From a virus (taxonomy: Duplodnaviria; Caudoviricetes), in the IMG/VR virus record IMGVR_UViG_3300028591_000082: a DNA stretch of 64,000 bases; one strand, 5' to 3'. The notes below the pieces were generated by a model that worked only from the letters and a program-made list of their open reading frames with translations, had not been told where the DNA came from and did not search any database. A program made the position numbers and the translations under genes. Of this stretch, positions 1 through 24,640 are shown in pieces (positions within the stretch are counted from its first letter, which is position 1; every line of letters begins with the position of its first letter).

Positions 1-240
1 TATTATATCATAAAAAATACACTTTAACAGGGTGTAAAAAATAAGAGGAAAATATTAAATAACATCTTTTTCTATTATATCTTCAAAACCTTTCGTAAAA
101 GTTATATCGTCCATTATTTGATCGATATCAGGTTCTTTTTTGTCTACAGTTTCAATAGTTTCTGAAGATATTTGCTCAGTTATATTTTGAGCATTTTTAT
201 CATTTTTATCATTTTCGATAGACACCTACAAATCTCCTAT

Positions 241-963
241 TTAGGCAGCTCTATGCTTTTTTGCTATTTCTTGAGCTTTAAAATAATTAAACCAGTCATT
301 GTAAGAAATGTAAATAAATTTTCTTTCTTTTGTTTTTTCACTTTCAAATATTAAAGGTCTATATTCTACAAGCCCATTATTTATTTTAAAATCTTCTTCC
401 ATACAAACACCTATAGGAAGAAAACCTTTTAGTTTTTTATTTAAAAGATCTTCTAATTGTATTGGCGGTGGATCTTCCCTTACTTTTACAAAATCTCCTT
501 GAATATTTTCTGTGTCAATTTCTTCTGAATTTATATTATTTGTAATAAAAGAAAAATCATAATATTCTTCTTCTGCAGATGGCAATTCTTCCAAGTCACT
601 TTCAAAATCTTCTTCTATTTCTTCAAGGGCCCCAACAAACTGATCATCGAAAAAATCGTCACTTCCAGGATATTCCTTGTATGCTTTTTTTTCTTCAATA
701 TATTCTTCCAATGTTATATCCAAATTTACAACTTGAACAATCCTATGTTCCATTGGTTTATACTGTTCGTATTTATCATCCTCTCTTCTTAAAAAACCAG
801 AAATTGATATTTTTGATGGATCTTTCATAAGGTCTTCAAGCTCTTTTTCGCTAACACTATATACAGATTCATAGTATCCATGTTTAATAATCCAAACATA
901 AGATGGATTTACCTCGTATATATATGTTTTACTTTCCGATAATTTACATATTTTCAAAAGCAT
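241..963 (-). CDS. Acidic hypothetical phage protein (240 aa)
   Basis: Long ORF, AAGGA SD, D/E-rich, ends RAA. Confidence 0.75.
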   Translation of the reverse strand: MLLKICKLSESKTYIYEVNPSYVWIIKHGYYESVYSVSEKELEDLMKDPSKISISGFLRREDDKYEQYKPMEHRIVQVVNLDITLEEYIEEKKAYKEYPGSDDFFDDQFVGALEEIEEDFESDLEELPSAEEEYYDFSFITNNINSEEIDTENIQGDFVKVREDPPPIQLEDLLNKKLKGFLPIGVCMEEDFKINNGLVEYRPLIFESEKTKERKFIYISYNDWFNYFKAQEIAKKHRAA

Positions 964-1048
964 ATTTTTTTATCCTTATATCCCAAAACAAAATAAGGGA
1001 AGCATCGAAACTTTCAACGCTTCCCAAGAAGTAAGAGGTGAGTATTAT

Positions 1049-1222
1049 TTATTCGTCGAGAACACTATAGTCGACGAACTCTTCCGATTTACCTTCAATT
1101 TTTCTTCGAAGTTTTTCTGCTTCGGCAACTGAAATCTTTATACCGTTGTAATCAACACTTAAAGAGCCATTGCTTTCAACATTAATCGTTCCGACATTTT
1201 TTATAAATCTTGTTCTGCCCAT
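1049..1222 (-). CDS. Hypothetical protein, 57 aa (MGRTRFIKNV...VLDE), below ORF-track cutoff
   Basis: Manual translation; GGGAG SD; fills the gap between 241-963 and 1235-1753. Confidence 0.65.
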   Translation of the reverse strand: MGRTRFIKNVGTINVESNGSLSVDYNGIKISVAEAEKLRRKIEGKSEEFVDYSVLDE

Positions 1223-1234
1223 TTTACTTCTCCC

Positions 1235-1753
1235 TTATACAGCAAAAATATAAACTTTTACATCACCACTTTCTTCATAGTCAAATGAAACTTCACTTTT
1301 ATCTTCTGGATCAACTCCTTCTGTATAAAAGTAATCGTTATAAAGAGAAATAAAGCCAATCATTTTTTGACAAGTAGAAATCTTATAAGCAAAATCATTT
1401 GCGTCATCTTCAAGATAAGCAATATCATCTTCGAGCTGTTGTTTCTGCTCTGCATCAAGTTTGTAATACTCAACGCTATTTTTTATTGCTTTCTTTACTG
1501 CGGCTTCTTGAATCATTTCACGATACTTTCGTTCGTAAATTTCAGAAGCATTTGCAAATGAATTAAGATCATACCATTCTCCAAAAGAATCTTTTGTACC
1601 ACTTGGAGTAGGAAGATCACATTTGCAAGGAACAATTTCTTCGTCAAGATGTGCAGAATATCGAGTCTGATTTACATTCTTAAGTTCATTGAAACAAGCG
1701 TTAAACTGAAGTTTACCGTTCTTAAAAAGTTTGAAATGGATATCGTATCCCAT
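1235..1753 (-). CDS. Hypothetical phage protein
   Basis: ORF with AGGGGG SD in a co-directional run. Confidence 0.75.
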   Translation of the reverse strand: MGYDIHFKLFKNGKLQFNACFNELKNVNQTRYSAHLDEEIVPCKCDLPTPSGTKDSFGEWYDLNSFANASEIYERKYREMIQEAAVKKAIKNSVEYYKLDAEQKQQLEDDIAYLEDDANDFAYKISTCQKMIGFISLYNDYFYTEGVDPEDKSEVSFDYEESGDVKVYIFAV

Positions 1754-1772
1754 ATGATCCCCCTTATTTGTT

Positions 1773-2012
1773 TTATTTTATTTCAATGGTAACACCATTT
1801 TTCTTATGCACAATTACTTTTGCAGCAAGTGTTTTCTTAGAACCAGTTCCTGCCATTTTGTATTTATTTCTGTTCGTTATTTTTTCATTGTTAATCTTAT
1901 CCCATTCTTCGTCAGAGATTTTGAAACTATCACGAACAGCCTGCTTTTCCATAGCCTCACGAACTCTTAATTCTTTGAAGCTCAATCTTTTTCCACCTTT
2001 AAGATTTTTCAT
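1773..2012 (-). CDS. Small basic hypothetical protein
   Basis: First gene after the box A promoter at 2036-2070; GAGG SD before MKNLKGG. Confidence 0.7.
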   Translation of the reverse strand: MKNLKGGKRLSFKELRVREAMEKQAVRDSFKISDEEWDKINNEKITNRNKYKMAGTGSKKTLAAKVIVHKKNGVTIEIK

Positions 2013-2080
2013 TTTATACCTCACCTTACTCTTATATTATATCACGAAAATATCATTTCGACAGGGTGCAAAATTTTTGG

Positions 2081-2410
2081 TTAAATCTTAATATTATTTC
2101 TTGAAGATTGTTCAAGCTCTTTTAATATTTTAAAAGAACTTTTTCTTATATCGTCGCAATTATTCATTGGAAAATAACAATCTGCATAACAATTAACAAG
2201 TTTTATAATTAAAGTACATACAGGAATATCACATCTTCCTGCAAAGATTTCTCCTCTACCTGTTAACATAGTTTTTAATACACAATCAGAGCAAGGAATA
2301 TAATCATGTTCTAATTTTAATTCTCTACTTCTAGGAACTCTACTTATATATTTATTATATGATAAATATGATAATTGTCTTTTTGCTTCTTTCTTTTGTT
2401 CTGAATTCAT
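2081..2410 (-). CDS. Cys-rich small protein with C-terminal tag (RNNIKI)
   Basis: CxxC plus further Cys; tag ends in an ATT codon plus TAA with no overlapping downstream gene. Confidence 0.75.
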   Translation of the reverse strand: MNSEQKKEAKRQLSYLSYNKYISRVPRSRELKLEHDYIPCSDCVLKTMLTGRGEIFAGRCDIPVCTLIIKLVNCYADCYFPMNNCDDIRKSSFKILKELEQSSRNNIKI

Positions 2411-3045
2411 TTTACATTCCTGAAACTAGATTTCTTATCAAAACCGTGATTTTCTATTTTCTCATTGTTTGAAAGACCTTTACTCTCTGTCTTTTCGCTA
2501 TTCTCTTGCAAAGCAGTAAAATATTCTACAAAGGCAAAGTAAATTTCTTCAGCAGAAGTGCAAGAAGGAATACCACTTTCTTTAAGAATTATAATTCCTT
2601 TTTTGTTTCCATAAGGAGCATCTTCTATTACTTTTGAGTAATAATATTTATTAAGAACACATTTTATTATTTCTTCATTTCCCCTTCCATTGTTTTTCCA
2701 GCCAAGCTTCCAAAAATCAACATAAAGTTTTTCAAGAGTAAATTCAGATAAATGATCGTAATCCTTCCATTTATGTATAAGTTCTGTATTAAAATCAATT
2801 ACTTCTCTATACATAGAATCTGATTTTACAACATTTACTTTATAAAGAAATCTTGTATAACCAATAGATAAAAGCAAAACGCAATATTTATTGCCATTAT
2901 CATATGAACGATCGTCTATGCTAAAGTGAGCACACCATTCTTGTCTGGAAATAGATATAGAACCCCTTCTATCAAATGTATAAAAATCGGGGTATATTCC
3001 TTGAAGATAATCGTAAAAGTCTTTGTTTTTATCTATTATTCTCAT
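2407..3045 (-). CDS. Hypothetical phage protein, probably leaderless (starts MRIIDKNKDFYD)
   Basis: ATG lies 6 nt past the -10 at 3052-3057; no SD. Confidence 0.7.
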   Translation of the reverse strand: MRIIDKNKDFYDYLQGIYPDFYTFDRRGSISISRQEWCAHFSIDDRSYDNGNKYCVLLLSIGYTRFLYKVNVVKSDSMYREVIDFNTELIHKWKDYDHLSEFTLEKLYVDFWKLGWKNNGRGNEEIIKCVLNKYYYSKVIEDAPYGNKKGIIILKESGIPSCTSAEEIYFAFVEYFTALQENSEKTESKGLSNNEKIENHGFDKKSSFRNVK

Positions 3046-3095
3046 ATGTGTATTATACAACTAAAAAATTATTTAAGCATGGTGCAGATACTTTG

Positions 3096-3365
3096 TTATT
3101 TTAAATCTAATATATCGTCAAAACTATATATAAAATAATATTTTACTTCTTCTAATATGTCTTTACAACGAATGTAACCAGATCCATCTTTTTGCTTAAT
3201 GTTCATTCCAGGATACATTCTGTTTAACAATTTAATGCAAGAATCAATTCTTAATATTTTCTTTAAAAATCTACAAGGACAATCAATACAATCAATATCA
3301 TCTTCATGTAATTCTGACAATTCATTTACTTTATTTACAATTAATGCACTAAAACTTCTTTCCAT
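3096..3365 (-). CDS. Cys-rich small protein (CIDCPC...C...C) lacking the C-terminal tag
   Basis: Same Cys spacing as the array proteins; ends DILDLK. Confidence 0.6.
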   Translation of the reverse strand: MERSFSALIVNKVNELSELHEDDIDCIDCPCRFLKKILRIDSCIKLLNRMYPGMNIKQKDGSGYIRCKDILEEVKYYFIYSFDDILDLK

Positions 3366-3981: not shown

Positions 3982-3997
3982 TTTATTCCCAAAAATA

Positions 3998-4486: not shown

Positions 4487-4488
4487 TG

Positions 4489-4839: not shown

Positions 4840-4864
4840 TGTTATATAAAAGTCAGAACTACCT

Positions 4865-4936
4865 TCGTAGAAACAGGACTCGAACCCATATTCACATCTT
4901 ATATTGATGGTATGCTACCAATTACATCATTCCACT
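4865..4936 (-). tRNA. Degenerate tRNA-like gene, nominal anticodon TAT (Ile), enclosed by a 9-bp inverted repeat
   Basis: Minus strand: acceptor GTGGAA/TTCTAC, D arm ATGT-AATTGGTA-GCAT, anticodon arm CATC-AATATAA-GATG, T arm ATGGG-TTCGAGT-CCTGT; lacks U33 and CCA. Confidence 0.55.
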
Positions 4937-4957
4937 TTCGTTCTGACTTATTTCTCC

Positions 4958-5308: not shown

Positions 5309-5370
5309 TTGTCGCCCCCTATATGTATATTATACACCGAAAAATCCATTTCAGCAGGGTGCAAAAAATA

Positions 5371-5512: not shown

Positions 5513-5516
5513 TGAT

Positions 5517-6044: not shown

Positions 6045-6121
6045 AATCACCCCTTATTTGTACATATATTATATCACGAAAAATATATCTTAACAGGGTG
6101 CAAAAATTTAAATATAGAATG

Positions 6122-6343: not shown

Positions 6344-6356
6344 TAAATTTCTCCAT

Positions 6357-7326: not shown

Positions 7327-7327
7327 T

Positions 7328-7534: not shown

Positions 7535-7594
7535 AATTTTTGCCTCCACATATAATTATATCACGAAAAATATATTTCAGCAGGGTGCAAATAA

Positions 7595-10670: not shown

Positions 10671-10674
10671 AAGA

Positions 10675-10935: not shown

Positions 10936-11021
10936 AATTTGCCTCCAGTTATTCCTCATATATATTATACAACAAAAAAAGCACCTTAGCAGGGTGCAAA
11001 AGTTTTAGGAATAATCAATAA

Positions 11022-13912: not shown

Positions 13913-14048
13913 TCGAATATTTGCGCCAATTAGGCTTTGCGGCCACTGTGGCTTTTTTATTGACAGTGTAATGATAGGAACCCCGTTTCGGGGCAAAAAT
14001 AAAAGCCCCTCGGGCGAACCCAAGAGGCTTCTAGCAATTTTTTTATGA

Positions 14049-14432
14049 TTAAGCAGCAGGCTGAATGCTTACAACCTTACCGAAGTTGATGTAGCGTACA
14101 CCAGTTGTTCCGTTAGGAGTGTTGTCTTCGGTGTAGTTTACAGTGATTGTAGCCTCGCCAATCTTTACGATTGGGAACTGATACTCTTTAGCAAACTTGC
14201 CAGAGCCGCAGATTACAGTAGCGATGTCGCCAACCTTTGCGTCCTTAACAAGAGCCTTACCAGCTTCAATTGCTTCAGCCTTAGCGGCTTCGCGAGCTGC
14301 CTTTGCCTGTTCAGCAAAAGCTTCCTTACCAGCCTTCTTCATTTCCTTGAGGGCGTCGATAGCAGCGTTGATTGAATCGAGGTTGTCAGCCTGAATACCG
14401 ATAGTAGCGAATGTTTCTGGAGTGAATTCCAT
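14049..14432 (-). CDS. Coiled-coil + KOW/SH3-like protein, paralogue 1 of 3
   Basis: VGDIATVICGSGKFAKEY.FPI.KIGEAT.TV.YTE.NTPNGT.GVRYINF.KVV shared with 15842 and 20484; the fold call is inference. Confidence 0.8.
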   Translation of the reverse strand: MEFTPETFATIGIQADNLDSINAAIDALKEMKKAGKEAFAEQAKAAREAAKAEAIEAGKALVKDAKVGDIATVICGSGKFAKEYQFPIVKIGEATITVNYTEDNTPNGTTGVRYINFGKVVSIQPAA

Positions 14433-14444
14433 AATTTTGTCCTA

Positions 14445-14512
14445 CCTAAGTAAACTTAGGATTTTGATTAAATTTGTTGTTCTTACGAACTTTTTTGAGG
14501 AGCAACGCTCCC
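14445..14512 (-). promoter_or_regulatory. Conserved 5' leader of the KOW-like paralogues (also 16276-16327 and 20923-20975)
   Basis: Identical CCTAAG-TTTA-CTTAGG hairpin abutting the SD in all three; 5' hairpin GGAGC-GTT-GCTCC vs GGGTC-GTT-GACCC covaries. Confidence 0.75.
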
Positions 14513-14564
14513 TTACTCTTATATTATACACCGCAAATCCTAACAGAACAGGGTGCATATTTTT

Positions 14565-14960
14565 TTGGTCTTGCGACCGTTTGCAGCTTCGAAACCTCTC
14601 TGAGAAGGGGGCAGAACCCAGCCCACAAATTGGGCTTCAATCTCATAAAAGATTTCTGACTGCGACATTCCTTGCAGGAGTTGCACCGTGCATTTCTTGC
14701 CTGAGAAGCAATCGTCCTAGCTGTTAGACGAAAGGAACATAAAAGGTGCGAAGGTTTCGCATTCGCTTGCGGAGCTCACCTTGACCCGATGGGGAGTGGG
14801 GTTTTGTTGTCGCACAATCACTAAGGCGTTGCTCTTTTTTCGAATGGATGTAAGCAATAGCCACAAATTCGCAAAAGTAGGTAAGGGTTAGATCACGCAC
14901 ACTATCTAAAGTGCATCTTCTAGTGGGAGAGGGAATTTCTTCGTATTCCTATCGTTCCTT
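14565..14960 (-). ncRNA. ORF-less box A transcription unit: structured leader, tRNA-like gene, 3' hairpins
   Basis: Promoter 14969-15003; 5' GTAAGG pairs with CCTTAC; ends GGTC-GCAA-GACC. Confidence 0.55.
14666..14738 (-). tRNA. tRNA-Glu(CTC)-like gene with atypical T arm
   Basis: GTTCCTT/AAGGAAT acceptor, Glu-type D arm TC-GTCT...AGGAC, TTGC-TT-CTC-AG-GCAA anticodon arm; T loop TGCAACT with a bulged stem; no encoded CCA. Confidence 0.65.
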
Positions 14961-15011
14961 ACTCTTATATTATATCACGAAACTTTTAATTCAGCAGGGT
15001 GCAGAATTTTT

Positions 15012-15105
15012 TGGTCTCGCGAAAGAACGGGGGATTTTTGTGAGGTGAACTTTGTAACCGATCTGCTCATTTGGAAAAGCAGAACGATCAATCTCCCGTT
15101 CCTTA
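15012..15105 (-). ncRNA. About 95-nt ORF-less RNA closed by a terminal stem
   Basis: Promoter 15113-15147; 5' AAGGAACGGGAGATT pairs with 3' AATCCCCGTTCTTT; internal TCTGCT/AGCAGA hairpin. Confidence 0.55.
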
Positions 15106-15154
15106 TACTAATATTATACACCGTAAACCTGAAGTCAGCAGGGTGCATAATTTT

Positions 15155-15267
15155 TAGGGTTCGGCAGCAAATTCTTCTTGGACATGCGAGCCATAAAACT
15201 CTATACCAAGGTTCCGCCACTCTTATATCTCTTTCGAGGGAAGTTCGACCTTCCTTTGCTGCCTTAC
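15155..15267 (-). ncRNA. About 110-nt ORF-less RNA closed by a terminal stem
   Basis: Promoter 15274-15308; GGCAGCAAA pairs with TTTGCTGCC; internal GGAAG/CTTCC and CTC-GAAA-GAG hairpins. Confidence 0.5.
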
Positions 15268-15327
15268 ACTAATATTATACCACGCAAAAGTGAACTGGGC
15301 AGGGTGTAAAATTTTTTGGTTTTTTTA

Positions 15328-15465
15328 TTGACTTAAAATCGATCTTAAGTTATACTGTGAGTACACTTGAATAAATTCGGATTTTCCGAATATTTAAGTA
15401 CAAACATATACAACACCAAAATCCGACTTTTTCGCGAGGTTGATCTTCGCGAGGAAGTCGGTGCT
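15328..15465 (+). ncRNA. Candidate sigma70-driven plus-strand small RNA
   Basis: TTGACT(15328)-17-TATACT(15351); two long hairpins, ATTCGGA/TCCGAAT and CCGACTT..TCGCGA/TCGCGA..AAGTCGG. Confidence 0.4.
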
Positions 15466-15553
15466 GCTGCCTATAGTGTAATGATAGGAACAACGGTTTT
15501 GTCAAGGTGGGCAGGGTGCAAAAGTGTGAGTACATGAGTTTTTTCAAATACAT

Positions 15554-15749
15554 GTCGACTTTTTACAAAAAGTCGACTATTTACATAGTGTAGGCTTCGA
15601 AGCCGTTTTGGTTTCAAAATCAGACATATGTATAGTATACTAGAATACTACTATACATATGTAGTGTAATGATTTGAATAACTATATTATATCATAAGGT
15701 TTGGTTAAGCAGGGTGCAATACAAATACACTATACATATGTATAGTGTA
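15554..15749. repeat. Cluster of DNA palindromes
   Basis: GTCGACTTTTT-AC-AAAAAGTCGAC at 15554-15577; ACATATGTATAGTA...TACTATACATATGT at 15624-15662; perfect 24-bp TACACTATACATATGTATAGTGTA at 15726-15749. Confidence 0.8.
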
Positions 15750-15841
15750 ATGATAGGAGCCCCGCAATAAAAAAGGCTAGGTGGCTTTCGCCGACCTAGT
15801 CGATTTATTTTAGGAGTGTCTGCCCTTTCGGGCAGGGTGCA

Positions 15842-16258
15842 TTACTGTGCGTCTACTCCGACAACCTTACCGAAGTTGATGTAGCGAACACCTACTGTGC
15901 CATTCGGTGTGTTATCTTCGGTGTAGCGAACAGTAATTGTTGCTTCGCCGATTTTTTCGATAGGGAACTTGTATTCCTTTGCGAACTTTCCACTACCACA
16001 GATAACTGTAGCAATGTCGCCGACTTTTGCGTTTTTGAGCAAAACCTTTCCGTTTTCAACGGCTTCGGCATTTTTTGCTTCGCGGGCAGCCTTCTGCTGT
16101 TCTGCGAACATTTCCTTTCCCGATTTCTTCAACTGACGGAGAACTTCCATAGTTGCGTCGAGTTCGTCAAGATTTATGAAATCCTTTGAGATTCCGATTG
16201 TTGCGAGTTTTTCTGTCTGAGCAGCCAAAAGTGATGGAGAAAAAGTTTTGTTAGCCAT
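15842..16258 (-). CDS. Coiled-coil + KOW/SH3-like protein, paralogue 2 of 3
   Basis: C-terminal about 60 aa nearly identical to 14049 and 20484; same leader. Confidence 0.8.
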   Translation of the reverse strand: MANKTFSPSLLAAQTEKLATIGISKDFINLDELDATMEVLRQLKKSGKEMFAEQQKAAREAKNAEAVENGKVLLKNAKVGDIATVICGSGKFAKEYKFPIEKIGEATITVRYTEDNTPNGTVGVRYINFGKVVGVDAQ

Positions 16259-16664
16259 AATGGTAATTTCCTTTGCCTAAGTAAACTTAGGACTTTTATT
16301 AGATTTTTTGTTCGGGTCAACGACCCTTGATGTCTTTATTCTACAACCCGAACTCTGACAGAGCAGGGTGCAGATTTTTGTTTTTTCTGCAAGGCAGAAA
16401 CTTTTTATTTTTCTGCCCTACGCCTATATTATAACATTTTGAACTTGGTTTAGCAGGGTGCAAATTGAATTATCTTTTGCAATTCACTCACCCTTCCTTC
16501 CCTAGTAATGTCAAAGAACTGTAGGCTCTTGTTCGTGCCTTACTCCTATATTATAGCAAGTGAAATTGATTTGAGCAGGGTGCAAATTGTCTACAGGATC
16601 TTTTTGATCTGAGCAGGGTGCAGCGGCTGCGGGGGTGTAATGATATGAACAACGAAAGGAAATC

Positions 16665-17011
16665 CCCTAGGGGCACTTAGACCCACTAGGGAACTTCTAA
16701 AATCACTTCCTATGGTGAAGGCATGTCTGCGACTAGGAAACCCTCTACATCATTTTATAAGTTTTTCTCACCGAAAACTAGAGAACCCGTAGTGAAACTT
16801 AAAAGGGGCTCGCAATTGTTTTATTAGTTTCCTATAGTTGAACTCTCAAAGCAACGAGCGTGCAAAGTAAAACTGCATGGATAATTTATGGATAATCACT
16901 ATGCTCAAAACCCACTTTACCCTAAAGTGTAAGCTGACACCAATCTTCCCTGTGTCAGTAGGGTAAGGACTCGAACCACTTTTATTAGTGGGGTACCTCA
17001 TCGTTCCTTAC
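16665..17011 (-). ncRNA. About 340-nt ORF-less structured RNA
   Basis: Promoter 17018-17052; starts GTAAGGAACGAT like the 14960 unit; GGTTCGAGTCC T-loop-like motif; stems CTGACAC/GTGTCAG, CACTTTA/TAAAGTG, GCTCG/CGAGC; terminal CCCTAG/CTAGGG hairpin. Confidence 0.55.
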
Positions 17012-17125
17012 ACCATTATTATAGCAAGGTTATTCCAATTAAGCAGGGTGCAATTCTACTAATGTGTTATGATTTGAATAACGAAAAAAAGCCCACTATA
17101 CGAAAGTATAGTGGGCAGAGGTGAT

Positions 17126-17710
17126 TTATACTATTGTGTATGAAGTCCAATCATTGTTTTTCCTTATTTCTTCAATAGGAATAACTGTGAAACTGTAGTC
17201 AGGCCCCTCATCTTCGACATTTTCATCTTCATCTTCGCCATAGCCCATACTGTCATACCAAGATTGAGCACAGTCGCCAATGTAATCCAATATTTCTTTT
17301 TTAGTATATTCTGCAGGAAAAGCATAGGATTCAATTTCGTCGTGACAATCGTATGAGGAACTATAAGTTGCCTCGATATACTGAAGTTTATTGTCAAGAT
17401 ATTTTCGCAATTCCTTTTCATGTTCTTTTGTGAACTTGAGCATAAACTGAACAACTTTGACAAGAGCAGGAGTAAAAGAATCAAATTGATAATTCTTAAA
17501 CTTTTCAAGGAACTTATCAACAAACCCTGCTCGCATACTTGAATAATTACAATGTTCCAAGCCCTCGACCAATTCATCGTATTTTTTGCCAAAACTGATA
17601 TAAGTGTTTAAATCCTGAACTTCACGCTCAAATTGAGCACAACCGATTCTGTCAGCAAATACAATATCTATACCACAAACATCTGAAACATACTTTGTTA
17701 TTTCTTTCAT
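17126..17710 (-). CDS. Hypothetical protein with acidic C-terminal domain
   Basis: Box A promoter, GAGGTG SD, followed by a GCCCACTATAC hairpin with T-run. Confidence 0.8.
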   Translation of the reverse strand: MKEITKYVSDVCGIDIVFADRIGCAQFEREVQDLNTYISFGKKYDELVEGLEHCNYSSMRAGFVDKFLEKFKNYQFDSFTPALVKVVQFMLKFTKEHEKELRKYLDNKLQYIEATYSSSYDCHDEIESYAFPAEYTKKEILDYIGDCAQSWYDSMGYGEDEDENVEDEGPDYSFTVIPIEEIRKNNDWTSYTIV

Positions 17711-17767
17711 ATCATCACCTCACGCTTTTATTGTAACCCACTCGGCAGAGCCGAGCAGGGTGCAGAT

Positions 17768-18058
17768 TTAACATTCACGCACTAATCGATCTTCGGCTTT
17801 ATATTCCAACTGATCGATTTGAGCCTGCGTTAATTCTACATTGTACTTTGTTTCGTACAGGGTGCAGAAATCCTCAAAACACTCTTGAAAAGAATAGTAT
17901 CTTTCCTTTTTCAAAAATGTTTTTTTGGTAATATCACTGTAAACACCTATACAATAAATGCCTTTATACATATAAAGCATAACTGTTTGCATACCTATAA
18001 CAAAACGGAAATCGACACTGTCATCGTTGACGATAATTTCTTTTGAAGCCTTCCACAT
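17768..18058 (-). CDS. Hypothetical cassette protein (starts MWKASKE)
   Basis: Box A promoter, GAGGTG SD. Confidence 0.75.
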   Translation of the reverse strand: MWKASKEIIVNDDSVDFRFVIGMQTVMLYMYKGIYCIGVYSDITKKTFLKKERYYSFQECFEDFCTLYETKYNVELTQAQIDQLEYKAEDRLVREC

Positions 18059-18178
18059 CTTTATCACCTCGCACCAACAGTATAACAAGATCAATCTGAT
18101 TGAGCAGGGTGCAACACTGCCACTGTGTTATAATTTGAACACCACTTTTTCAAGTGGTAGGGGCTTTCGCCCCTAGAC

Positions 18179-18583
18179 TTAGGCAACCAAGGCTACCTGC
18201 AACCTACTTGCTACATAGGCTACAGCCCACCTAGAAGATTCGCCATTTTGGTTTTTACATACGATAGGGTATGTTCGGGCACGATTATTCCAGTCAAGAA
18301 TACGCCAGGTATTCCCCTTTTCATCACGCCATTTTAAGCCGATGACTACTTTAGGAACATCACGATAATAACACCATAAAGCGTCATGAATTTTGGCATT
18401 TGCGAAATCGTCGATTTTAAGAGAGCCGTCGGTATTTTTTTCGACAGTTTCAATAGTAATCTTCAAGCCAGTATCTGAATAAGTAATACGAGATCTAGAC
18501 ATCTCATTATTAAACTCAGCCAATAAACCACTAAGCATAGAATCAAGTCTAGCATGGAAAACTTTACAAGTTGATTTATCCAT
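18179..18583 (-). CDS. Hypothetical cassette protein, ends ALVA
   Basis: Box A promoter, GAGGTG SD. Confidence 0.8.
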   Translation of the reverse strand: MDKSTCKVFHARLDSMLSGLLAEFNNEMSRSRITYSDTGLKITIETVEKNTDGSLKIDDFANAKIHDALWCYYRDVPKVVIGLKWRDEKGNTWRILDWNNRARTYPIVCKNQNGESSRWAVAYVASRLQVALVA

Positions 18584-18710
18584 TTTATCACCTCACATCT
18601 TTATTATAATCTGCTCGGACTAACCGAGCAGGGTGCAGCACCACAACTGTGTTGTAATTTGAATACCGCAAATAAGAGCACCACCCTTTCGGGTGGTGTA
18701 GAGTGTGATG

Positions 18711-18992
18711 TTATGCGGTCATTAAAGATACTTCTCCGAGTGGAGAATGCACCCGTCTATGGCAGTTCGCACAAAGGCACACAAAGTTGTTTATATCGTT
18801 TTTACCACTTACTGCAAGTGGAACGATATGGTGGAGTTCAATGACATATTTGTCTCTTTCTCCACAAATCTGACATTCATACCCAAGACGCTCTTTAATT
18901 CGTCTAATGGTTGCCATTTTAGGTCTATCTCGTTTTATCGGAAAGTGATGGCAAATACGCTCGTACTCGCTCATTTTGTGTCCTTTCTTCAT
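18711..18992 (-). CDS. Small HNH endonuclease
   Basis: CQICG...ELHHIVP...G.N..NNFVCLCANCHRRVH. Confidence 0.85.
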   Translation of the reverse strand: MKKGHKMSEYERICHHFPIKRDRPKMATIRRIKERLGYECQICGERDKYVIELHHIVPLAVSGKNDINNFVCLCANCHRRVHSPLGEVSLMTA

Positions 18993-19066
18993 AAACTTGC
19001 CCCCTTAGTTTATTATGTCTTATGCCCTTATTATACTCGGCTAGCACTAGCCGAGCAGGGTGCAGA

Positions 19067-19198
19067 TTAGAACAGAGCCGAATGTCTTTTCTTAATCCAC
19101 GAATGTATTTCTGTTACTGCAAGATAGATTGTAAGCACTACAAGAGCAGGTACTGCCACGAGTGTTTCTACTGAAAACTGATTAAGCCACTGTATCAT
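19067..19198 (-). CDS. 43-aa single-pass membrane peptide
   Basis: Manual translation MIQWLNQFSVETLVAVPALVVLTIYLAV...; box A promoter and GAGGTG SD. Confidence 0.65.
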   Translation of the reverse strand: MIQWLNQFSVETLVAVPALVVLTIYLAVTEIHSWIKKRHSALF

Positions 19199-19253
19199 TT
19201 TATCACCTCACGACTATAGTATACCCCATTCGCACTAGGCGAACAGGGTGCAA

Positions 19254-19427
19254 TTAACAGATACTACTCCAAGAAGTATAGTAAGAACAAAAGCCAAGAG
19301 CATTTAATCCCATACAGATTTCTCTTGCATCCCAACGAGCCAAATCTTTTGCAACAAGTCTTTCAACACCATTCTCTCTGATGTAGACATTACTAAGAAG
19401 TTGCCAATGAAGTTTCTCTTTGTACAT
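19254..19427 (-). CDS. 57-aa cassette protein (MYKEKLHWQ...)
   Basis: Manual translation; box A promoter and AAGGAGG SD. Confidence 0.65.
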   Translation of the reverse strand: MYKEKLHWQLLSNVYIRENGVERLVAKDLARWDAREICMGLNALGFCSYYTSWSSIC

Positions 19428-19548
19428 ACTGTCCTCCTTACGCCTTTATTATAGCAATCATTGATTGATTGAGCAGGGTGCAACGCTGCAGCAATGTAGT
19501 AATACCAACCCCGCCCTTTCGGGTGGTGGGGCTTTCGCCCCTAGCGGA

Positions 19549-20007
19549 TTATTCAGTAGCGTATTTGATAAACTCATCATAGAGATTATGCTTTGCAAGG
19601 AAATCAAAAAGATAACAACTACCAACATAATCTTGTAAGGCTTCGTCGATTGCATTTTTTATACTATCGTTGCCATTTTCAATAAGTGTTTCAAGTTCTT
19701 TTTGAGTAAAATCTGTAATACTTGCAGAAACATGAACATTATCATCGATTGCTTCAACTAAAGCCCTTAAATCTTCATTGTTGTCAAATTCAACATCGTC
19801 CAAGAAAGTAATACCATCAATAGATTGTACAAGTTCAATGGCTAATCTTTCGCCATAGTCATTTGCATACTCTCCAAGATACCCGTAGTACTGACCACAG
19901 TCATCGCAAAAATACAATTTTTTGGCAATATCTAATTCATGGTCTTTAATCTGTTGCTTTTCCCAATCTTCAAGACCACAGAATGCTTTTGTTGTTTTTG
20001 TTTTCAT
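19549..20007 (-). CDS. Acidic cassette protein with CxxC
   Basis: Box A promoter, GAGGTG SD. Confidence 0.8.
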   Translation of the reverse strand: MKTKTTKAFCGLEDWEKQQIKDHELDIAKKLYFCDDCGQYYGYLGEYANDYGERLAIELVQSIDGITFLDDVEFDNNEDLRALVEAIDDNVHVSASITDFTQKELETLIENGNDSIKNAIDEALQDYVGSCYLFDFLAKHNLYDEFIKYATE

Positions 20008-20099
20008 ATCATCACCTCACGCTTTTATTATAACAAAGTTTGACTGATTAAACAGGGTGCAACGCTCACCCCGATGTAGTAATACCAACACCGCAAATA

Positions 20100-20350
20100 A
20101 AAAACCCTAGGGGTTATCCCCTAGGGGTAACTACCTACCTATACCATAGGTATTTCGGTAGGCAATCGGTAGACTCTTGCTAACATTAGAGCACGAGAAA
20201 TGCGAGTGGATTAAAGTGGCTACCCGTTCACTCGATTGTTTTCTTTAAGCCCTCGACCAACCTTGAATACGAGGGGCTATTGTCGTGCAAGCAGACGGAG
20301 GGTTTGTTACGCCATAGCCCACAACTACGTGAGGCTTTCGCCTCATTACA
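20100..20350 (-). ncRNA. About 250-nt ORF-less multi-hairpin RNA
   Basis: Promoter 20356-20390; GAGGC-GAAA-GCCTC, GGGCTAT/ATAGCCC, CCTCG/CGAGG, CGAGTG/CACTCG and CTACC/GGTAG stems; terminal CCCTAGGGG hairpin plus T-run. Confidence 0.55.
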
Positions 20351-20483
20351 TCTGTATTATACTATACTCCCATAATGAGAGCAGGGTGCAACACTACTTG
20401 GTGTAGTAATACCAACCCCGAGGTCGGCTCGGCAGAAAACCCGAGAGCCGACTTCTATTCCCACCCTTTCGGGTGGGGGCAGA

Positions 20484-20906
20484 TTATTCTGCCTTTTCTA
20501 CGCCAACAACCTTTGAGAAGTTGATGTAGCGAACACCTGTTGTTCCGTTAGGGGTATTACCCTCTGTGTATTCTACGGTAACAGTTGCTTCACCGATTTT
20601 TACGATAGGGAACTTGTATTCCTTAGCAAACTTGCCCGAACCACAGATAACGGTTACGATGTCGCCAACATTTGCTCCCTTAAGCAGAGCCTTACCATTT
20701 TCGATATTTTCGGCTTTCTGAGCCTCTCTCTGAGCCTTAGCCTGTTCTGCGAGAGATTCCTTAGCAGAAGTCTTGATTTTGCGGATTTCGTCGATAGCAC
20801 AGTCGAGCAAATCCTTATCAACACATTCAGCGTTGATACCCATAGCATTAAGACCATTTGCAACTTTTGCAACCAATTCAGAAGAAAAAACTTTCTTAGC
20901 GTTCAT
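20484..20906 (-). CDS. Coiled-coil + KOW/SH3-like protein, paralogue 3 of 3
   Basis: Same C-terminal domain and leader as 14049 and 15842. Confidence 0.8.
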   Translation of the reverse strand: MNAKKVFSSELVAKVANGLNAMGINAECVDKDLLDCAIDEIRKIKTSAKESLAEQAKAQREAQKAENIENGKALLKGANVGDIVTVICGSGKFAKEYKFPIVKIGEATVTVEYTEGNTPNGTTGVRYINFSKVVGVEKAE

Positions 20907-21205
20907 AAGACACTCCGTTTTGCCTAAGTAAACTTAGGACTTTTATTAGATTTTGTTTTGAGGAGCAACGCTCCCTTATGCCTTTATTGTACTCCGTTCG
21001 ACCTAGCCGAGCAGGGTGCAAGTTTTAGCCTTTTCCATAGAGTGAGGGGCGAACCCTCACTCAGCCATAAGACTGTTTCTCACTGCCTTACACCATTATT
21101 ATAGCAAGGTTTATAGACTTAAGCAGGGTGCAACTCGGCAGAGCCAGACCCTGGTGTAGTGATAGCAACCCCGCCCCCGACCCTTTCGGGTCGGTGTATA
21201 CTTTA

Positions 21206-21382
21206 TTAAACAAACATTCTGATTAGTTCATTAGCGAGTAAGAGTTTTTTCTTTTTGTCGCTATCCAAGATTTTTTTGTCAGAAACACTTTTAATTAAAG
21301 CACGAGCAATTGTAAGTTTCTGACTGTCGGTAATTGTATTGCCCAAGTCGGCAATAAGTTCAAGCAATTCGTCGTCGTTCAT
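21206..21382 (-). CDS. Small helical cassette protein
   Basis: Box A promoter, AAGGAG SD. Confidence 0.65.
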   Translation of the reverse strand: MNDDELLELIADLGNTITDSQKLTIARALIKSVSDKKILDSDKKKKLLLANELIRMFV

Positions 21383-21392
21383 ACGCAACTCC

Positions 21393-21599
21393 TTATGGCT
21401 TTATTATAATGCCCTTGCCACTATCGAGCAGGGTGCAACTCTCACCAACTTTCCTTATGACTTCAAAAGGAAGTACCATATTATCGCCAACGAAAGCAAC
21501 CCTTTTATCGCTACTGAAGGAAGTGATTATGCCTACAGATACAGTAGCCAAACTTTTATAAATGATTCTGTCGCCAACATTAAGTTTTTCGATAACCAT
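21393..21599 (-). CDS. Small beta-barrel-like cassette protein (VGDRIIY...)
   Basis: Box A promoter, AGGGGG SD; reads through the next promoter. Confidence 0.55.
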   Translation of the reverse strand: MVIEKLNVGDRIIYKSLATVSVGIITSFSSDKRVAFVGDNMVLPFEVIRKVGESCTLLDSGKGIIIKP

Positions 21600-21721
21600 A
21601 TCTGACCCCCTTACGCCTTTATTATACGCCAATCAATCGAGCCAAGCAGGGTGCAACTCCAACGACTGTGTTGTAATTCGAACACCGAAACTCACCGAGC
21701 GAACTCGGTGAGCAAGAGATG

Positions 21722-21925
21722 TTATGTGTTTATGTGTAAGTGATTTGCAATAGTGTTCTTACCCTTAATTTTAGCCTTATGGTATTCATAGCAAACCTTT
21801 GCTACATTTACCCCTATCATAAAAATGGCAGAAACAATTTTAATCGGTGTATTACCGAGTACCATTCCAACAAAAGAAATAGTCCTTACGAGTGTAGATA
21901 CAGATTCGATATAAAACTTTTCCAT
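21722..21925 (-). CDS. Small membrane cassette protein
   Basis: Box A promoter, GAGGTG SD, hydrophobic core. Confidence 0.65.
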   Translation of the reverse strand: MEKFYIESVSTLVRTISFVGMVLGNTPIKIVSAIFMIGVNVAKVCYEYHKAKIKGKNTIANHLHINT

Positions 21926-22015
21926 TTTATCACCTCACACCCATAGTATAACAAGGCTTGACTGATTGAGCAGGGTGCAAGTCGGCAACTGTGTTGTAAT
22001 TCGAACACCGAAAAT

Positions 22016-22303
22016 AAAAAAACTCACCACCCCCTGAGAGCAACGCCTGCTCTTGTGGAGATGGTGAGTGTAACTCAATACCCTTTTATTTTCGCCAAAA
22101 GGGTGAAAAGAACTCGGCGGTATTAGGCTCGCGAATGCCCACATCAACTGCAATAGTGATACTTTCCATTAAAGACAGAAACTTTTAATCTACTATGGCT
22201 TTCTACGATACCACTAACGGTAATCAAGGTCGTCAGATTACATGACGGATTTTGTAAGTGTTTTCTCACATAGACTGTCTATAGGAGGCTTTCACTCCCT
22301 TAT
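22016..22303 (-). ncRNA. About 285-nt ORF-less structured RNA with intrinsic terminator
   Basis: Promoter 22310-22344; GGAG/CTCC, CGTCA/TGACG and ACCCTTTT/AAAAGGGT stems; CTCACCA/TGGTGAG plus T7. Confidence 0.5.
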
Positions 22304-22345
22304 GCTTTTATTATACCCCATTCGTACTAGGCGAACAGGGTGCAA

Positions 22346-22531
22346 CTATGCTACAAGTTCCACATAGTCAATTACTTTTATGCAATAAACATCTGCCCTA
22401 GAAATCTTCTTGCCAAGTTTCTTAGACATCTTTTCAATATAGAAGGGCAACTTCATTTCGACATCTTCCTTAGAAGCGTTGTCGACAAGCACACATTCGC
22501 CCAACCAACTTCTTAAAATTATAGCAACCAT
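22346..22531 (-). CDS. Cassette protein, ends ELVA
   Basis: Box A promoter, AGGGGG SD; stop abuts the next box A. Confidence 0.7.
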   Translation of the reverse strand: MVAIILRSWLGECVLVDNASKEDVEMKLPFYIEKMSKKLGKKISRADVYCIKVIDYVELVA

Positions 22532-22651
22532 ATCTTGCCCCCTTACGCCTTTATTATAGCAAGGTTATTCAAACAGAGCAGGGTGCAACTCTACTACTGT
22601 GTTATAATTTGAATACCGTTTTGGAACGGTAGGGGCTTTCGCCCCTAGTCT

Positions 22652-22942
22652 CTAGTCGCTATCTTCAAGTCTTGTAAGATAGTCGTATTCTTTTAATTCC
22701 TTTTCAGTTGCAAACTGATACAGTTCGTCGTCGCGTATTGCAATAAAGAAAGGATTTTCTCTTTCAAAAAACTTGTAAAGAACATCAAGAGCATTTTTCT
22801 TACACTTCATTTCTTCAAGTTCTGATTCTGCAAATAAACCACCAACGCAAGTGTTCATTCTCAAATCATTCTCGTCGTTTATACTCCAACCCAAAAGGTA
22901 AGTAAGTTCACAAAAGAACTGTTTCTTTTCCAAATCAACCAT
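22652..22942 (-). CDS. Acidic cassette protein
   Basis: Box A promoter, GAGGTG SD. Confidence 0.7.
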   Translation of the reverse strand: MVDLEKKQFFCELTYLLGWSINDENDLRMNTCVGGLFAESELEEMKCKKNALDVLYKFFERENPFFIAIRDDELYQFATEKELKEYDYLTRLEDSD

Positions 22943-23053
22943 AACCACACCTCTTGCCCTAAGTATACTCCACTCACACCACCAAAACAGGGTGCAACAC
23001 CAACTATTGTGTTATAATTTGAATAGCGTAGGTGGGGCGTCTGCCCCTTTTAC

Positions 23054-23302
23054 CTATGCAACTTTTATATTGCGTACAATGAAATTGTTTTTCTTTTCTT
23101 TTTTGATAATCTTTATAAGACTAATTGAATTGATAACCAAGCAAGAGCCATTCATAAAAATCATACTAGGTAAGCCAAGCACGATAGCATAAACCAAGAA
23201 CATAATTCCACTTACTATTGCGATAGTACGGAAAATTTTCTGATTCTTTACACAGTATGTAACCAACACCAAGCAACTTGCAATAGTACTTAAAACTTCC
23301 AT
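23054..23302 (-). CDS. Small three-TM membrane protein, YgjV-like
   Basis: Hydrophobic pattern with K..R.I...FLVYA...N; family call is from memory. Confidence 0.6.
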   Translation of the reverse strand: MEVLSTIASCLVLVTYCVKNQKIFRTIAIVSGIMFLVYAIVLGLPSMIFMNGSCLVINSISLIKIIKKEKKNNFIVRNIKVA

Positions 23303-23357
23303 AACATCACCTCACGACAACAGTATACTATGCTCTCACTAGGAGAGCAGGGTGCAA

Positions 23358-23576
23358 CTATGCTACAAACTTGCAAACATCTACTGTCTTATATAAGTCG
23401 CATACTTTTTTTGACTTCAAATCTTTACAAAGTTTTTTGGCATACTGTCTTGCTTTTCTTTTAGAAGAAAAGTGTATTGCATTAGAGGGTCTGCCAACAA
23501 GAAAGCCACCGTTATCATAGTACATACGACCGTCCCAAGATTTTACTCCGACCAAATAATACTTGACTCTTTTCAT
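23358..23576 (-). CDS. Basic cassette protein, ends KFVA
   Basis: Box A promoter, GAGGTG SD. Confidence 0.7.
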   Translation of the reverse strand: MKRVKYYLVGVKSWDGRMYYDNGGFLVGRPSNAIHFSSKRKARQYAKKLCKDLKSKKVCDLYKTVDVCKFVA

Positions 23577-23704
23577 ACGCACCTCTTACCCATATTATAA
23601 CAACCATTGATCGATCGAGCAGGGTGCAACGCTGCCACTGTGTTGTAATTTGAATAACGAGTTGAGGGACAGATTGGCTCTGCCCCTTGTTCTATATCAC
23701 AGCG

Positions 23705-23845
23705 TTATCTCCACAGTAATGTTTCAGGGTTGTCTGCAATCTTTTTTGCCGAACCCTCGATTGCTTTATCCATATCATAGGTCTTAGCCTTGATAGCCTT
23801 CTTCAATGCGACAACTCTTCTGTGTCGCTCTGCTATTGTAATCAT
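23705..23845 (-). CDS. 46-aa FlgM-like (anti-sigma28) peptide, below ORF-track cutoff
   Basis: MITIAERHRRVVALKKAIKAKTYDMDKAIEGSAKKIADNPETLLWR; own box A promoter, AAGGAG SD and downstream hairpin; resembles the FlgM C-terminal consensus. Confidence 0.55.
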   Translation of the reverse strand: MITIAERHRRVVALKKAIKAKTYDMDKAIEGSAKKIADNPETLLWR

Positions 23846-23901
23846 AAGCAACTCCTTATGCCTATACTATACTCCCCCTAGGTTGAGGGAGCAGGGTGCA
23901 G

Positions 23902-24231
23902 TTAAAGCGTTATCTCTTTAAGAAGTTCAATAGATGATTTATCCTTGTACTTCTTTTCGTAGTAATACTTCCACTCTGCGAAGTAATAAAAACCATCTGA
24001 AGTGTTATTAGTATAGCAAGGCATTTTTAAGATGACTGCTTCTTTGAAACTATCATCATCGTTTTCAAAAGCCTTAAAGATTTCTGCATAAGCTCTGACA
24101 TTTTCCTCTGCTTCTTTGGCGGTGTCAAAGTTTTCATCAGCAATATTAAATGCTCGGTCTGTAAACTCGTTATAAATAATGTTATCCAAAACCTTAAAAG
24201 CATTATCGCTAAGCGTTATAGTTTTTTCCAT
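23902..24231 (-). CDS. Cassette protein (starts MEKTITLS)
   Basis: Box A promoter at 24250-24284. Confidence 0.7.
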   Translation of the reverse strand: MEKTITLSDNAFKVLDNIIYNEFTDRAFNIADENFDTAKEAEENVRAYAEIFKAFENDDDSFKEAVILKMPCYTNNTSDGFYYFAEWKYYYEKKYKDKSSIELLKEITL

Positions 24232-24287
24232 ATCATCATCTCTGACTAGAGTATAGTAACCCCACTGTGTGAGAGCAGGGTGCAAGA

Positions 24288-24500
24288 TTAGAAGAGTTCC
24301 ATAATGATAGATCCATTATCATCACCATAGCACTGTGGATTATTACAGTACCATTCATATTCTTCCCATGTTGGTTCTGTGCCTTTTTTGAAACACATCA
24401 TTTCATACTCTGCCCATGTGAAACAATCTTCATACTGTTCCTCTGCAAAGCAAGAACAACCAACCAATAACAAAGCAAGTATTAAAATAATCTTTCTCAT
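24288..24500 (-). CDS. Small exported acidic protein with signal peptide, leaderless
   Basis: MRKIILILALLLVGCSCFA; ATG 6 nt past the -10. Confidence 0.65.
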   Translation of the reverse strand: MRKIILILALLLVGCSCFAEEQYEDCFTWAEYEMMCFKKGTEPTWEEYEWYCNNPQCYGDDNGSIIMELF

Positions 24501-24640
24501 AGCCATAGTATATACAGTGGTGTATATACAAACAGGGTGCAGACTCCACCACCTGAGTTTGATTATGCACCCTGCTATAGCACCTCAATCTTTGTATAAT
24601 AAAGTTGTGAGGTGATAATATGAAGAAGTTCTAATTTGTT

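Follow-up and report, generated by a model that had tools for sequence, protein, structure and literature searches.

The 64-kb window analysed here, which is the whole 64,000-nucleotide (nt) stretch of IMG/VR record IMGVR_UViG_3300028591_000082, belongs to an uncultured T4-like giant phage of gut Treponema whose whole genome is estimated at >200 kb. It carries about forty copies of a conserved promoter element with the core TGCACCC, here called box A, which is the subject of this study. The gene set of the window is T4-like and includes a T4-type portal (PF07230), large terminase, prohead protease, UvsX-like recombinase and a gp32-like single-stranded DNA-binding protein, together with the replication genes DnaB, primase, DnaE-type polymerase and ThyX. 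Close relatives were not found among GenBank phages, which gave no nucleotide match and portal and DnaE genes at most 32% identical to those of the window; a related 54.9-kb fragment was rated 24% complete. In the window, box A stands ahead of small ORFans, an HNH endonuclease gene, three paralogs, a YgjV-like membrane protein fragment and structured units without an open reading frame (ORF).

Occurrence and phase of box A

The TGCACCC heptamer occurs 40 times in the window, where 2.11 copies are expected from shuffles (largest shuffle 6). All copies are confined to positions 2064-24572, and 38 of the 40 lie on the minus strand, which is the coding strand there. The distance to a sigma70-type -10 hexamer is fixed, as TGCACCC-N22-TANNNT was found 36 times against 0.04 expected and the best -10 match fell at spacing 22 in 34.5 of the 38 scorable copies. 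Mismatch variants are nearly absent. Only three boxes with one mismatch share the identical geometry (TACACCC at 2-36 and at 15274-15308, TGCACCATG at 3052-3086), which brings the promoter-like copies to 39. Another four boxes lack a -10 (15520, 16622, 17866 and 18748), for 43 overall; the box at 17866 lies inside an ORF and is kept as coding sequence in one relative, and the plus-strand box at 18748 is probably a chance occurrence. The lone inverted promoter, 24566-24600 (+), stands back to back with the minus-strand copy 24507-24541. The original prediction, made by a model that saw only the letters and their reading frames, had described about 42 copies of a near-invariant TGCACCCTGYT with a 22-nt spacing to the -10 that included the single inverted copy, CTGYTN at the standard -35 position and TTGCAC 24 nt from the -10; the recount and the position-by-position analysis below agree with it on each of these points.

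Anatomy of the promoter module

Box A opens a module that consists, in this order, of an A/T tract, tTGCACCCTGYT, 18 nt, TATAAT, a 6-nt discriminator and RTRAGG. The box itself is asymmetric, 11-12 bp long and located at about -42 to -31. The 36 exact copies do not vary at box positions 0-8 (TGCACCCTG); position 9 is a pyrimidine (28 C, 8 T), 34 copies have T at position 10, and 25 have a leading T. Counted position by position, the consensus reads t-TGCACCCTG-Y-T-c, a variable stretch, TATAAT (in some copies TATACT or TACAAT), A-W-A-G-G-Y, a purine (G in 20 copies, A in 14) and T-R-A-G-G. In the -10 hexamers of the 36 copies at N22, the consensus base is found 31 times at position 3 (T), 35 times at position 4 (A) and 28 times at position 5 (A). 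A TTGACA-like -35 hexamer at 16-18 bp is missing from all copies, which have CTGYTN (two of six matches) in its place, and the invariant bases reach 6 nt further upstream than the -35 position. The optional extended -10 motif TGn (TG at -15/-14) is present in 16 of 39 copies (41%), where about 2 are expected; the remaining 23 have neither -35 nor TGn.

In about 25 copies RTRAGG is the beginning of a strong Shine-Dalgarno (SD) sequence (GTGAGGTGAT), with SD and start codon 16-23 nt past the -10. Most predicted mRNAs would therefore have a leader of ~15 nt and a 5' end 2-3 nt before the ribosome site. RTRAGG is retained even where the leader is long or no ORF follows, e.g., at 15003, 15308, 16584 and 22344.

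Two flavours of the promoter separate by region. Class 1, found in the AT-rich 2-15 kb and in more distant relatives, has a AAAATTTT tract before the box and a spacer that ends in TTTTCG(T/G)(G/T)(A/G). In the second flavour, located in the GC-richer 15.7-24.6 kb, the spacer sequence is free. The G+C content there is 38-43% versus 26-33% elsewhere, a composition step that was also recorded for 14000-24600, the promoter-dense stretch, against the rest of the window. The downstream half of class 1 (TTTTCGTGATATAAT) also occurs in unrelated phages behind ordinary TTGAC(A/T) -35 hexamers, and a search for diverged boxes with this half (TTTTCGKKRTATAATATA) returned only such unrelated phages.

A canonical promoter class in the same window

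Perfect TTGACA-17-TATAAT promoters are located at 31785(-), 31901(-) and 43520(-), and TTGACA-16-TATAAT at 36219(-), against ~0.2 expected from base composition. These four serve genes that are not driven by box A and lie outside the box A region; near-perfect canonical promoters stand, e.g., ahead of the DnaB helicase gene, a methyltransferase-like gene and ThyX. Because other genes of the window have canonical promoters of their own, two promoter classes, both prereplicative, appear to coexist; that there are two classes was a claim of the original prediction, which the three TTGACA-17 sites uphold. Both classes are alike from -17 downstream.

According to a recent preprint, native spirochaete promoters follow TTGACN-16/18-TANNNT with a purine start 6-7 nt past the -10, and the -35-reading residues of spirochaete sigma region 4 are conserved (bioRxiv 10.64898/2026.02.09.704077). 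The canonical class of the window is thus what the spirochaete primary sigma should read, and box A should not be a normal target of spirochaete sigma region 4. Box A promoters resemble spirochaete housekeeping promoters in the -10, the discriminator length and the purine at the expected start but lack TTGACN, whereas the canonical promoters of the window fit fully.

Conservation in related phages

A metagenome scan recovered >30 related phage fragments at 65-90% nucleotide identity, some of them with 10-13 box A copies per 3-5 kb, so that window and related contigs together hold 112 distinct copies. Of the boxes in the relatives, 67 have their best -10 match at spacing 22 and 4 at spacing 21. 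Orthologous promoters were paired via the homology of their downstream genes (72-91% identical). Identity between them is 97.7% for box A, 85.5% for the -10 and 84.6% for RTRAGG, as compared to 50.8% for the spacer and 47-54% for the upstream flank, a measure that is partly circular for the seven selected bases of the box and free of this for TGYT, the -10 and the phase. The bases between box and -10, which had been predicted to vary, diverge even faster than the downstream genes, and some orthologous genes carry quite different spacer types. With spacer and flank at ~50% and the box at ~98% identity, homogenisation of whole cassettes cannot explain the invariant box. Gene order differs between the related contigs, all of them fragments, as well. 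Judging from these sequences, promoter and SD seem to be exchanged between relatives as cassettes, like the PeSL/PmSL elements discussed below.

In distant relatives, box A lies directly ahead of a gene similar to CCA-adding enzymes (PolyA_pol and HD domains) and of an RNA ligase gene, on contigs that also carry an NAD-dependent DNA ligase and homing endonucleases. By analogy with T4, the gene set on these box A contigs is prereplicative. IMG/VR relatives identified by their portal (55-88% identity) are fragments without box A, the strict motif gave one chance match in IMG/VR, and its 75 matches among 185,579 species genomes were all single, with none related to the window and no genome holding more than one copy.

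Gene orientation, the fixed 22-nt phase, the enrichment of TGn, the purine, the SD with ATG and the conservation of box and -10 lead us to propose that the box A sites constitute a distinct second prereplicative promoter class, of early or middle type, in which the -35 is replaced. As a reading of sequence this is well supported.

A Treponema chromosomal island with box A

A motif search of candidate host genomes, which the original prediction had recommended, gave a result that it had not foreseen. Treponema genomes were retrieved through a spirochaete-selective 16S primer, and one among about 360 Treponemataceae genomes scanned, an uncultured Treponema sp. metagenome-assembled genome (MAG), has the same promoter design in a chromosomal island. 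The island holds 10 co-oriented intergenic box A sites within 170.8-201.8 kb of the 207-kb contig CAMVDX010000003.1; an eleventh site is on another contig. Each site is preceded by an A/T tract, and TANNNT (TAATTT or TATTTT) follows at exactly N22 in 6 of the 11, against a background of 2.2% (P = 5e-8). The genes behind the island sites are intact and encode BspA-type leucine-rich repeat proteins, Sel1/tetratricopeptide repeat proteins, a type IIG restriction-modification enzyme, AAA ATPases and small membrane or acidic proteins. The island also codes for SUFU and is flanked by ABC-transporter genes on one side and ComEC on the other. Neither a phage structural gene nor a regulator gene, including sigma and helix-turn-helix (HTH) genes, was recognised in it. 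It is built from repeated cassettes of a box A site and a conserved leader (CCTCATAAAGAACAGCG..CACCTCACACAGTCACGGCGTCTC; L428, L429 and L452). Among its small products are two very acidic, Cys-containing proteins of 83-87 amino acids (aa; MSQELIEE...), one of them encoded just upstream of the type IIG restriction-modification gene, and two 59-aa membrane proteins.

Two of the island's coding sequences connect it to the phages. The gene of a 59-aa two-helix membrane protein, located directly behind an island box A, has 86% DNA identity to a box A-driven gene in phage contigs L155 (1436-1615) and L180, and the promoters of this shared gene in island and phage have no homology outside the box. 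In addition, a 578-aa MAG protein (L452:5729-7465) matches the box A-driven paralogs of the window at 57-65% identity over its C-terminal 65 residues. A promoter twin next to a shared gene lends independent support to Treponema as host of the phage, and the sequences suggest that the box A promoter design works, or has worked, in a Treponema cell. A nucleotide search of the MAG with positions 1-40000 of the window yielded only a 40-nt domain snippet. ThyX and the YgjV-like ORF were also followed as leads to a host genome, and no relative was found with either.

In Treponemataceae genomes at large, TGCACCCTG-N20-TANNNT is sporadic, and the inspected sites are mainly inside long ORFs. The 12-mer TGCACCCTGYTC was considered as the mark of a wider Treponema regulon and rejected. 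It has matches in 120 of 301 Treponemataceae genomes, but 19 of 20 inspected sites fall within long ORFs, where the coding sequence mostly contains the reverse complement; the matches looked commoner than those of a reversed control. The number of sigma factors was uninformative as a clue, with 8 in the MAG versus 5-16 in its relatives.

As a separate observation, one of the 109 scanned window ORFs matches the microbial-type PARG catalytic domain (E = 1.7e-33), and a PARG-like macro domain is also encoded in the MAG island.

Elements around box A

Terminator hairpins stand ahead of at least 14 box A copies, which gives these units the order stem-loop, promoter, SD and start codon. Behind such a hairpin lies a second conserved element, box U, a 20-mer of the form cGGTrTTCrAATyAyAACACAGT. 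Box U is found upstream of 14 box A copies in the GC-richer part, at a distance of 21-37 nt, mostly 22-23, and at 22-29 nt in related contigs. Sites on the minus strand are 17055-17085, 18116-18146, 18640-18670, 19485-19515, 20064-20095, 20392-20422, 21135-21175, 21658-21690, 21982-22012, 22590-22620, 22999-23030 and 23631-23661, and stand-alone variants occur near 13976, 15486, 15674, 15755 and 16645. Box U may act in the manner of an UP element or bind a second factor, may be a promoter of another class, or may mark 3' ends. One variant without box A, TATCATTACAC(TATAG), resembles the 3' end of T7/SP6-type promoters.

Inverted repeats of at least 6 bp occur in the spacer of 17 of the 112 distinct copies versus 2.2 expected, at varying positions. 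Spacer repeats were recorded at 17730-17764, 18603-18637, 19030-19064, 19218-19252, 23322-23356 and 23866-23900 in the window and in contigs L141, L089, L139, L170 and L168. They change in compensatory fashion between orthologous promoters, often pair with the 3' half of the box (CCTGCTC...GAGCAGG) and tend to accompany an upstream ORF that ends at the box (7 of 13 versus 4 of 23, P = 0.056). One possibility is that the repeat represents the 3' stem-loop of the upstream mRNA, nested in the next promoter. A tandem pair of boxes, 38 nt apart, is located at 16550-16622 (-); its upstream box has TAGACA or TAGGCA at the place of the -10, and the pair is kept in L089 and L139.

Comparison with known promoter systems

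To our knowledge, temporal promoter classes have been worked out in detail for few model phages only, and we know of no described counterpart of the MotA system in T4-like phages outside enterobacteria. Our literature search found nothing on TGCACCC as a promoter or on these phages, and nothing that joins Treponema, jumbo phages and the rumen.

T4 middle promoters, to which the original prediction had likened box A, have a strict host -10, accompanied by TGn in about half of them, and another element instead of the -35. This element, the MotA box, is degenerate and 9 bp long, (a/t)(a/t)(a/t)TGCTTtA, with its centre at -30 and a distance of 12 ± 1 bp to the -10 (PMC2988021). The analogy holds in function. 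Here, too, a T4-like phage combines a strict host-type -10, TGn in about 40% of copies and a TGCT-containing box in place of the -35, the genes served are prereplicative, and canonical early promoters coexist. As a family assignment, however, the analogy fails. Box A has 11-12 bp and is essentially invariant; with its centre near -36 and its end 18 bp from the -10, it has neither the distance nor the centre of a MotA box. The TGCT core alone is shared, with CACCC instead of A/T upstream of it, and no MotA or AsiA was found in the window. Furthermore, T4 middle promoters are without UP elements, whereas class 1 box A copies have the adjacent AAAATTTT tract.

The T4 early 'uber' promoters (UP/-35/TGn/-10) are similar in other respects, with ~40 copies and a conservation above that of host promoters (PMC2988021). 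They share with box A promoters an A/T-rich upstream tract, TGn, a perfect -10 and the many small takeover-type genes behind them. Unlike box A promoters, which have CTGYTN there, they keep a -35 (GTTTAC or TTGACA-like) at 17 bp.

The closest architectural parallel is with the PeSL/PmSL elements of T4-like phages, in which a stem-loop, an early or middle promoter and an SD form an exchangeable cassette (Arbiol 2010, Comeau 2014; PMC4122927). Box A units likewise are compact cassettes of terminator stem-loop, promoter, SD and start among small ORFans of a hyperplastic region, have a conserved promoter core and bear signs of exchange between relatives. They differ in a core that is neither sigma70-like nor Mot-like, in the extra box U between terminator and promoter, in the stem-loop inside the promoter spacer of a subset, and in the presence of the design in a bacterial chromosome.

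Two other promoter types do not fit. Promoters of the N4 virion RNA polymerase each have an obligatory short hairpin at a fixed place, which contrasts with the minority of box A copies that have spacer repeats and with the variable positions of these repeats. Extracytoplasmic function (ECF) sigma promoters have a -10 of CGTC/CGTA type and a GAAC-like -35, and the -10 of box A promoters is TATAAT.

Who reads box A

The proposal that a non-canonical element takes the place of the -35 in a second promoter class has come through all sequence tests, while the search of the window for the reader of box A returned no protein. The 23 copies without -35 and TGn should be poor promoters in the absence of a positive contribution from the box. 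A fixed phase, intolerance of mismatches and a host-type -10 point to a protein whose docking on RNA polymerase substitutes for the contact between sigma region 4 and the -35. In the mechanism that we propose, host RNA polymerase with its primary sigma would melt the -10, and a separate sequence-specific module on box A, replacing the region 4/-35 contact, would recruit or stabilise the polymerase, following the logic of T4 sigma appropriation. The most likely reader would be a phage protein made from the canonical TTGACA promoters or delivered with the virion. Box A promoters would then form a 'middle'-like class whose ~40 units are separated in time from the canonical class. The units of promoter and SD, often behind a terminator, also seem to behave as portable cassettes like the PeSL/PmSL of T4.

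That the reader is made by the phage or delivered by its virion is in our view close to an even call. A phage factor fits the existence of two classes, the copy number and perfection of the phage sites and the rarity of such sites in Treponema genomes; on this view the cassettes of the MAG island would have been captured and would fire when the cell is infected. Several points weigh against it. The start sites are read from sequence alone, and searches of the 109 window ORFs with Pfam and PHROGs revealed no sigma, MotA, AsiA or HTH protein. Position and length of box A differ from those of the MotA box, and an UP-element-like A/T tract beside the box is typical of promoters for unmodified host polymerase, as in T4 early promoters, and not of T4 middle promoters. 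A MAG chromosome has 11 box A sites ahead of intact bacterial-type genes, 6 of them with TANNNT at N22, which is easier to explain with a reader that resides in the cell. Four candidate factor genes behind canonical promoters gave no PDB sequence match and no Pfam or PHROGs family. For a weak Sigma70_r2 match in one portal-related fragment, hmmscan gave no confirmation, and the window has nothing that corresponds to it.

The island is also an argument for the alternative hypothesis that the reader belongs to the host, i.e., that it is a lineage-specific alternative sigma or activator of Treponema, perhaps island-borne, whose promoter type the phage adopted. Box A promoters of takeover genes would then fire at once on injection, as early-type small ORFan genes must be readable at that moment; the restriction-modification system of the island needs expression in phage-free cells, and the upstream A/T tract is common to phage and island sites. 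However, only one genome of the whole Treponemataceae set has such sites, no sigma or HTH gene was found in the island, so that a lineage-specific regulator has to be postulated, and the gene and domain shared with the phage lineage imply that the cassettes may be phage-derived. The perfect canonical promoters of the phage also leave no obvious reason for a second constitutive class. We consider a host reader less likely than a phage factor, but a serious rival to it.

The boldest reading is that box A represents an independent, non-MotA form of sigma appropriation, in which a factor retargets the Treponema polymerase to an invariant 11-bp box in a rigid 22-bp phase and the MAG island is wired to that factor. 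We offer this full combination tentatively and rate it as rather unlikely. A wired island could consist of captured phage cassettes that fire only on infection, e.g., defence or exclusion genes set off by the transcription switch of the phage itself, or could be a host regulon hijacked by the phage.

The remaining explanations together account for a small part of the probability. Box A might be the operator of a phage repressor or shut-off protein, in which case host sigma70 would suffice for the promoters, through their extended -10. Phage P1, with its dispersed and asymmetric C1 operators, offers a comparison, and box A is indeed asymmetric, highly conserved and overlaps the -35 region, with TGn in 16 of 39 copies. 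Yet a spacing to the -10 that is exact to the base pair is needless for a repressor and needed for a partner of polymerase, and the 23 copies without TGn and -35 would be very weak unaided; we judge an operator improbable. Maintenance of the box mainly through copying and recombination of cassettes, as in concerted evolution of PeSL type or at an exchange site, and not through transcriptional reading, would agree with the terminator-promoter-SD architecture, the spacer types swapped between orthologous genes and the PeSL precedent (PMC4122927, PMC2839356), but is very improbable in view of the contrast between box and spacer or flank identity among orthologues and of the fixed phase with the -10, which points to polymerase geometry. 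That box A works at the level of RNA in read-through transcripts, where it would signal processing, stability or termination and the spacer hairpins (enriched, often paired with the 3' half of the box and tending to occur where an upstream ORF ends at the box) would form its structure, is scarcely credible, as most copies lack the hairpin, the fixed distance to TATAAT has no rationale at the RNA level and many copies are behind strong terminators and would not be transcribed. A Chi-like or packaging signal was rejected because each copy lies at a fixed distance from a -10, ahead of a gene.

Whoever reads it, the lineage provides a large and clean set of promoters for study. There are ~40 copies per genome and >100 distinct ones across relatives, their bases are invariant and their phase is exact, and the canonical class serves as an internal control. 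Transcription units and ORF-less RNA genes of these uncultured phages can already be annotated with the motif, which can also serve to fish for the reader protein. The MAG twin raises the question of whether a host island heeds a phage transcription factor or the phage borrows a host factor.

Box A sites along the window

Sites are given from left to right and lie on the minus strand unless stated otherwise. At the window edge, 2-36 is a variant promoter (TACACCCTGTT-N18-TATAAT), and a second variant with TGCACCATG-N20-TATAAT is located at 3052-3086. The class 1 promoters of the AT-rich part are 2036-2070 (upstream A/T tract, TGn, SD and start codon at 2012), 5329-5363 (start 5308), 6068-6102 (TGn, start 6044), 7555-7589 (TGn, start 7534) and 10964-10998 (start 10935), the last with an orthologue in L135 that has 91.5% downstream identity.

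The three paralogous genes (14049-14432, 15842-16258 and 20484-20906, all (-)) encode proteins of 127-140 aa, and a box A promoter with a conserved leader hairpin precedes each of them. These promoters are 14523-14557, with a 90-nt leader that contains the hairpin, 16338-16372 (TAGAAT) and 20986-21020 (TACAAT). The box at 15807-15841 (TAAAAT at N22) is a doubtful promoter, as its 3' half forms the stem of a terminator-like hairpin of gene 15842-16258.

Between the first two paralogs, promoters are located at 14969-15003 (TGn), followed by an ORF-less unit with a tRNA-like match at 14666-14738, at 15113-15147, and at 15274-15308, a variant with TACACCCTGCC-N18-TATAAT and TGn that heads an ORF-less unit. 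The box at 15514-15520 has no -10 at N22 and is followed by the box U-like TATCATTACAC, and the copy at 15684-15718 is atypical, with TAATAT at N22 and TATAAT at N20. Upstream of the second paralog lie the promoters 16428-16462 (TGn) and 16550-16584 (TGn), the latter the downstream partner of the tandem pair; the other partner, the box without -10 at 16616-16622, is 38 nt upstream of the 16584 box.

The following promoters are 17018-17052 (TGn), behind a terminator and box U and heading an ORF-poor unit of ~380 nt, 17730-17764 (6-bp spacer inverted repeat, start 17710), 18079-18113 (TGn, TATACT, behind box U), 18603-18637 (8-bp repeat, behind box U, start 18583) and 19030-19064 (8-bp repeat), which stands ahead of the HNH gene 18711-18992. 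They are succeeded by 19218-19252 (TATACT, 5-bp repeat, start 19198), 19448-19482 (TGn, behind box U, start 19427), 20027-20061 (TGn, behind a terminator and box U, start 20007) and 20356-20390, the head of an ORF-less structured unit of ~250 nt with a terminal terminator.

Beyond the third paralog are 21098-21132 (TGn), 21403-21437 (start 21382), 21621-21655 (behind box U, start 21599), 21945-21979 (TGn, TATACT, behind box U, start 21925), 22310-22344 (an ORF-less or long-leader unit), 22553-22587 (TGn, behind box U, start 22531) and 22962-22996 (TATACT, behind box U, start 22942). The promoter 23322-23356 (TATACT, 7-bp spacer repeat) serves the YgjV-like gene 23054-23302 and is followed by 23594-23628 (TGn, behind box U, start 23576) and by 23866-23900 (TATAGT), which drives the 46-aa ORF 23705-23845, for which a faint match to FlgM (E = 0.11) was the only one. 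The series ends with 24250-24284 (TATACT), the outermost minus-strand copy 24507-24541 (TATACT) and the sole plus-strand promoter 24566-24600 (TATAAT), behind which an SD and a 4-codon ORF are found.

ORF-less box A units and other observations

The ORF-less box A units, of 150-400 nt, are located at 14560-15310, 16470-17020, 20100-20360 and 22150-22310 (-); all of them start with GTAAGG and end in terminators. Rfam tRNA models matched above the gathering threshold at 14666-14738 (-) and 4865-4936 (-) (40.7 and 35.1 bits, respectively), and neither was called by ARAGORN. The match at 14666-14738 is repeated, with 92-94% identity, several times on each of the contigs L150, L158 and L121. tRNA genes were rejected as the cause of the GC-richer, promoter-dense stretch, since ARAGORN found none and Rfam gave these two tRNA-like matches only.

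Two observations concern genes with other signals. The canonical promoter 43486-43520 (-), TTGACA-17-TATAAT, has an ATG only 6 nt past its -10, and the mRNA of ORF 43264-43485 is predicted to be leaderless. Furthermore, AAG(T/A)TAA is located exactly 4 nt before SD-less start codons at 37940(+), 48561(+), 43960(-) and 62219(-).

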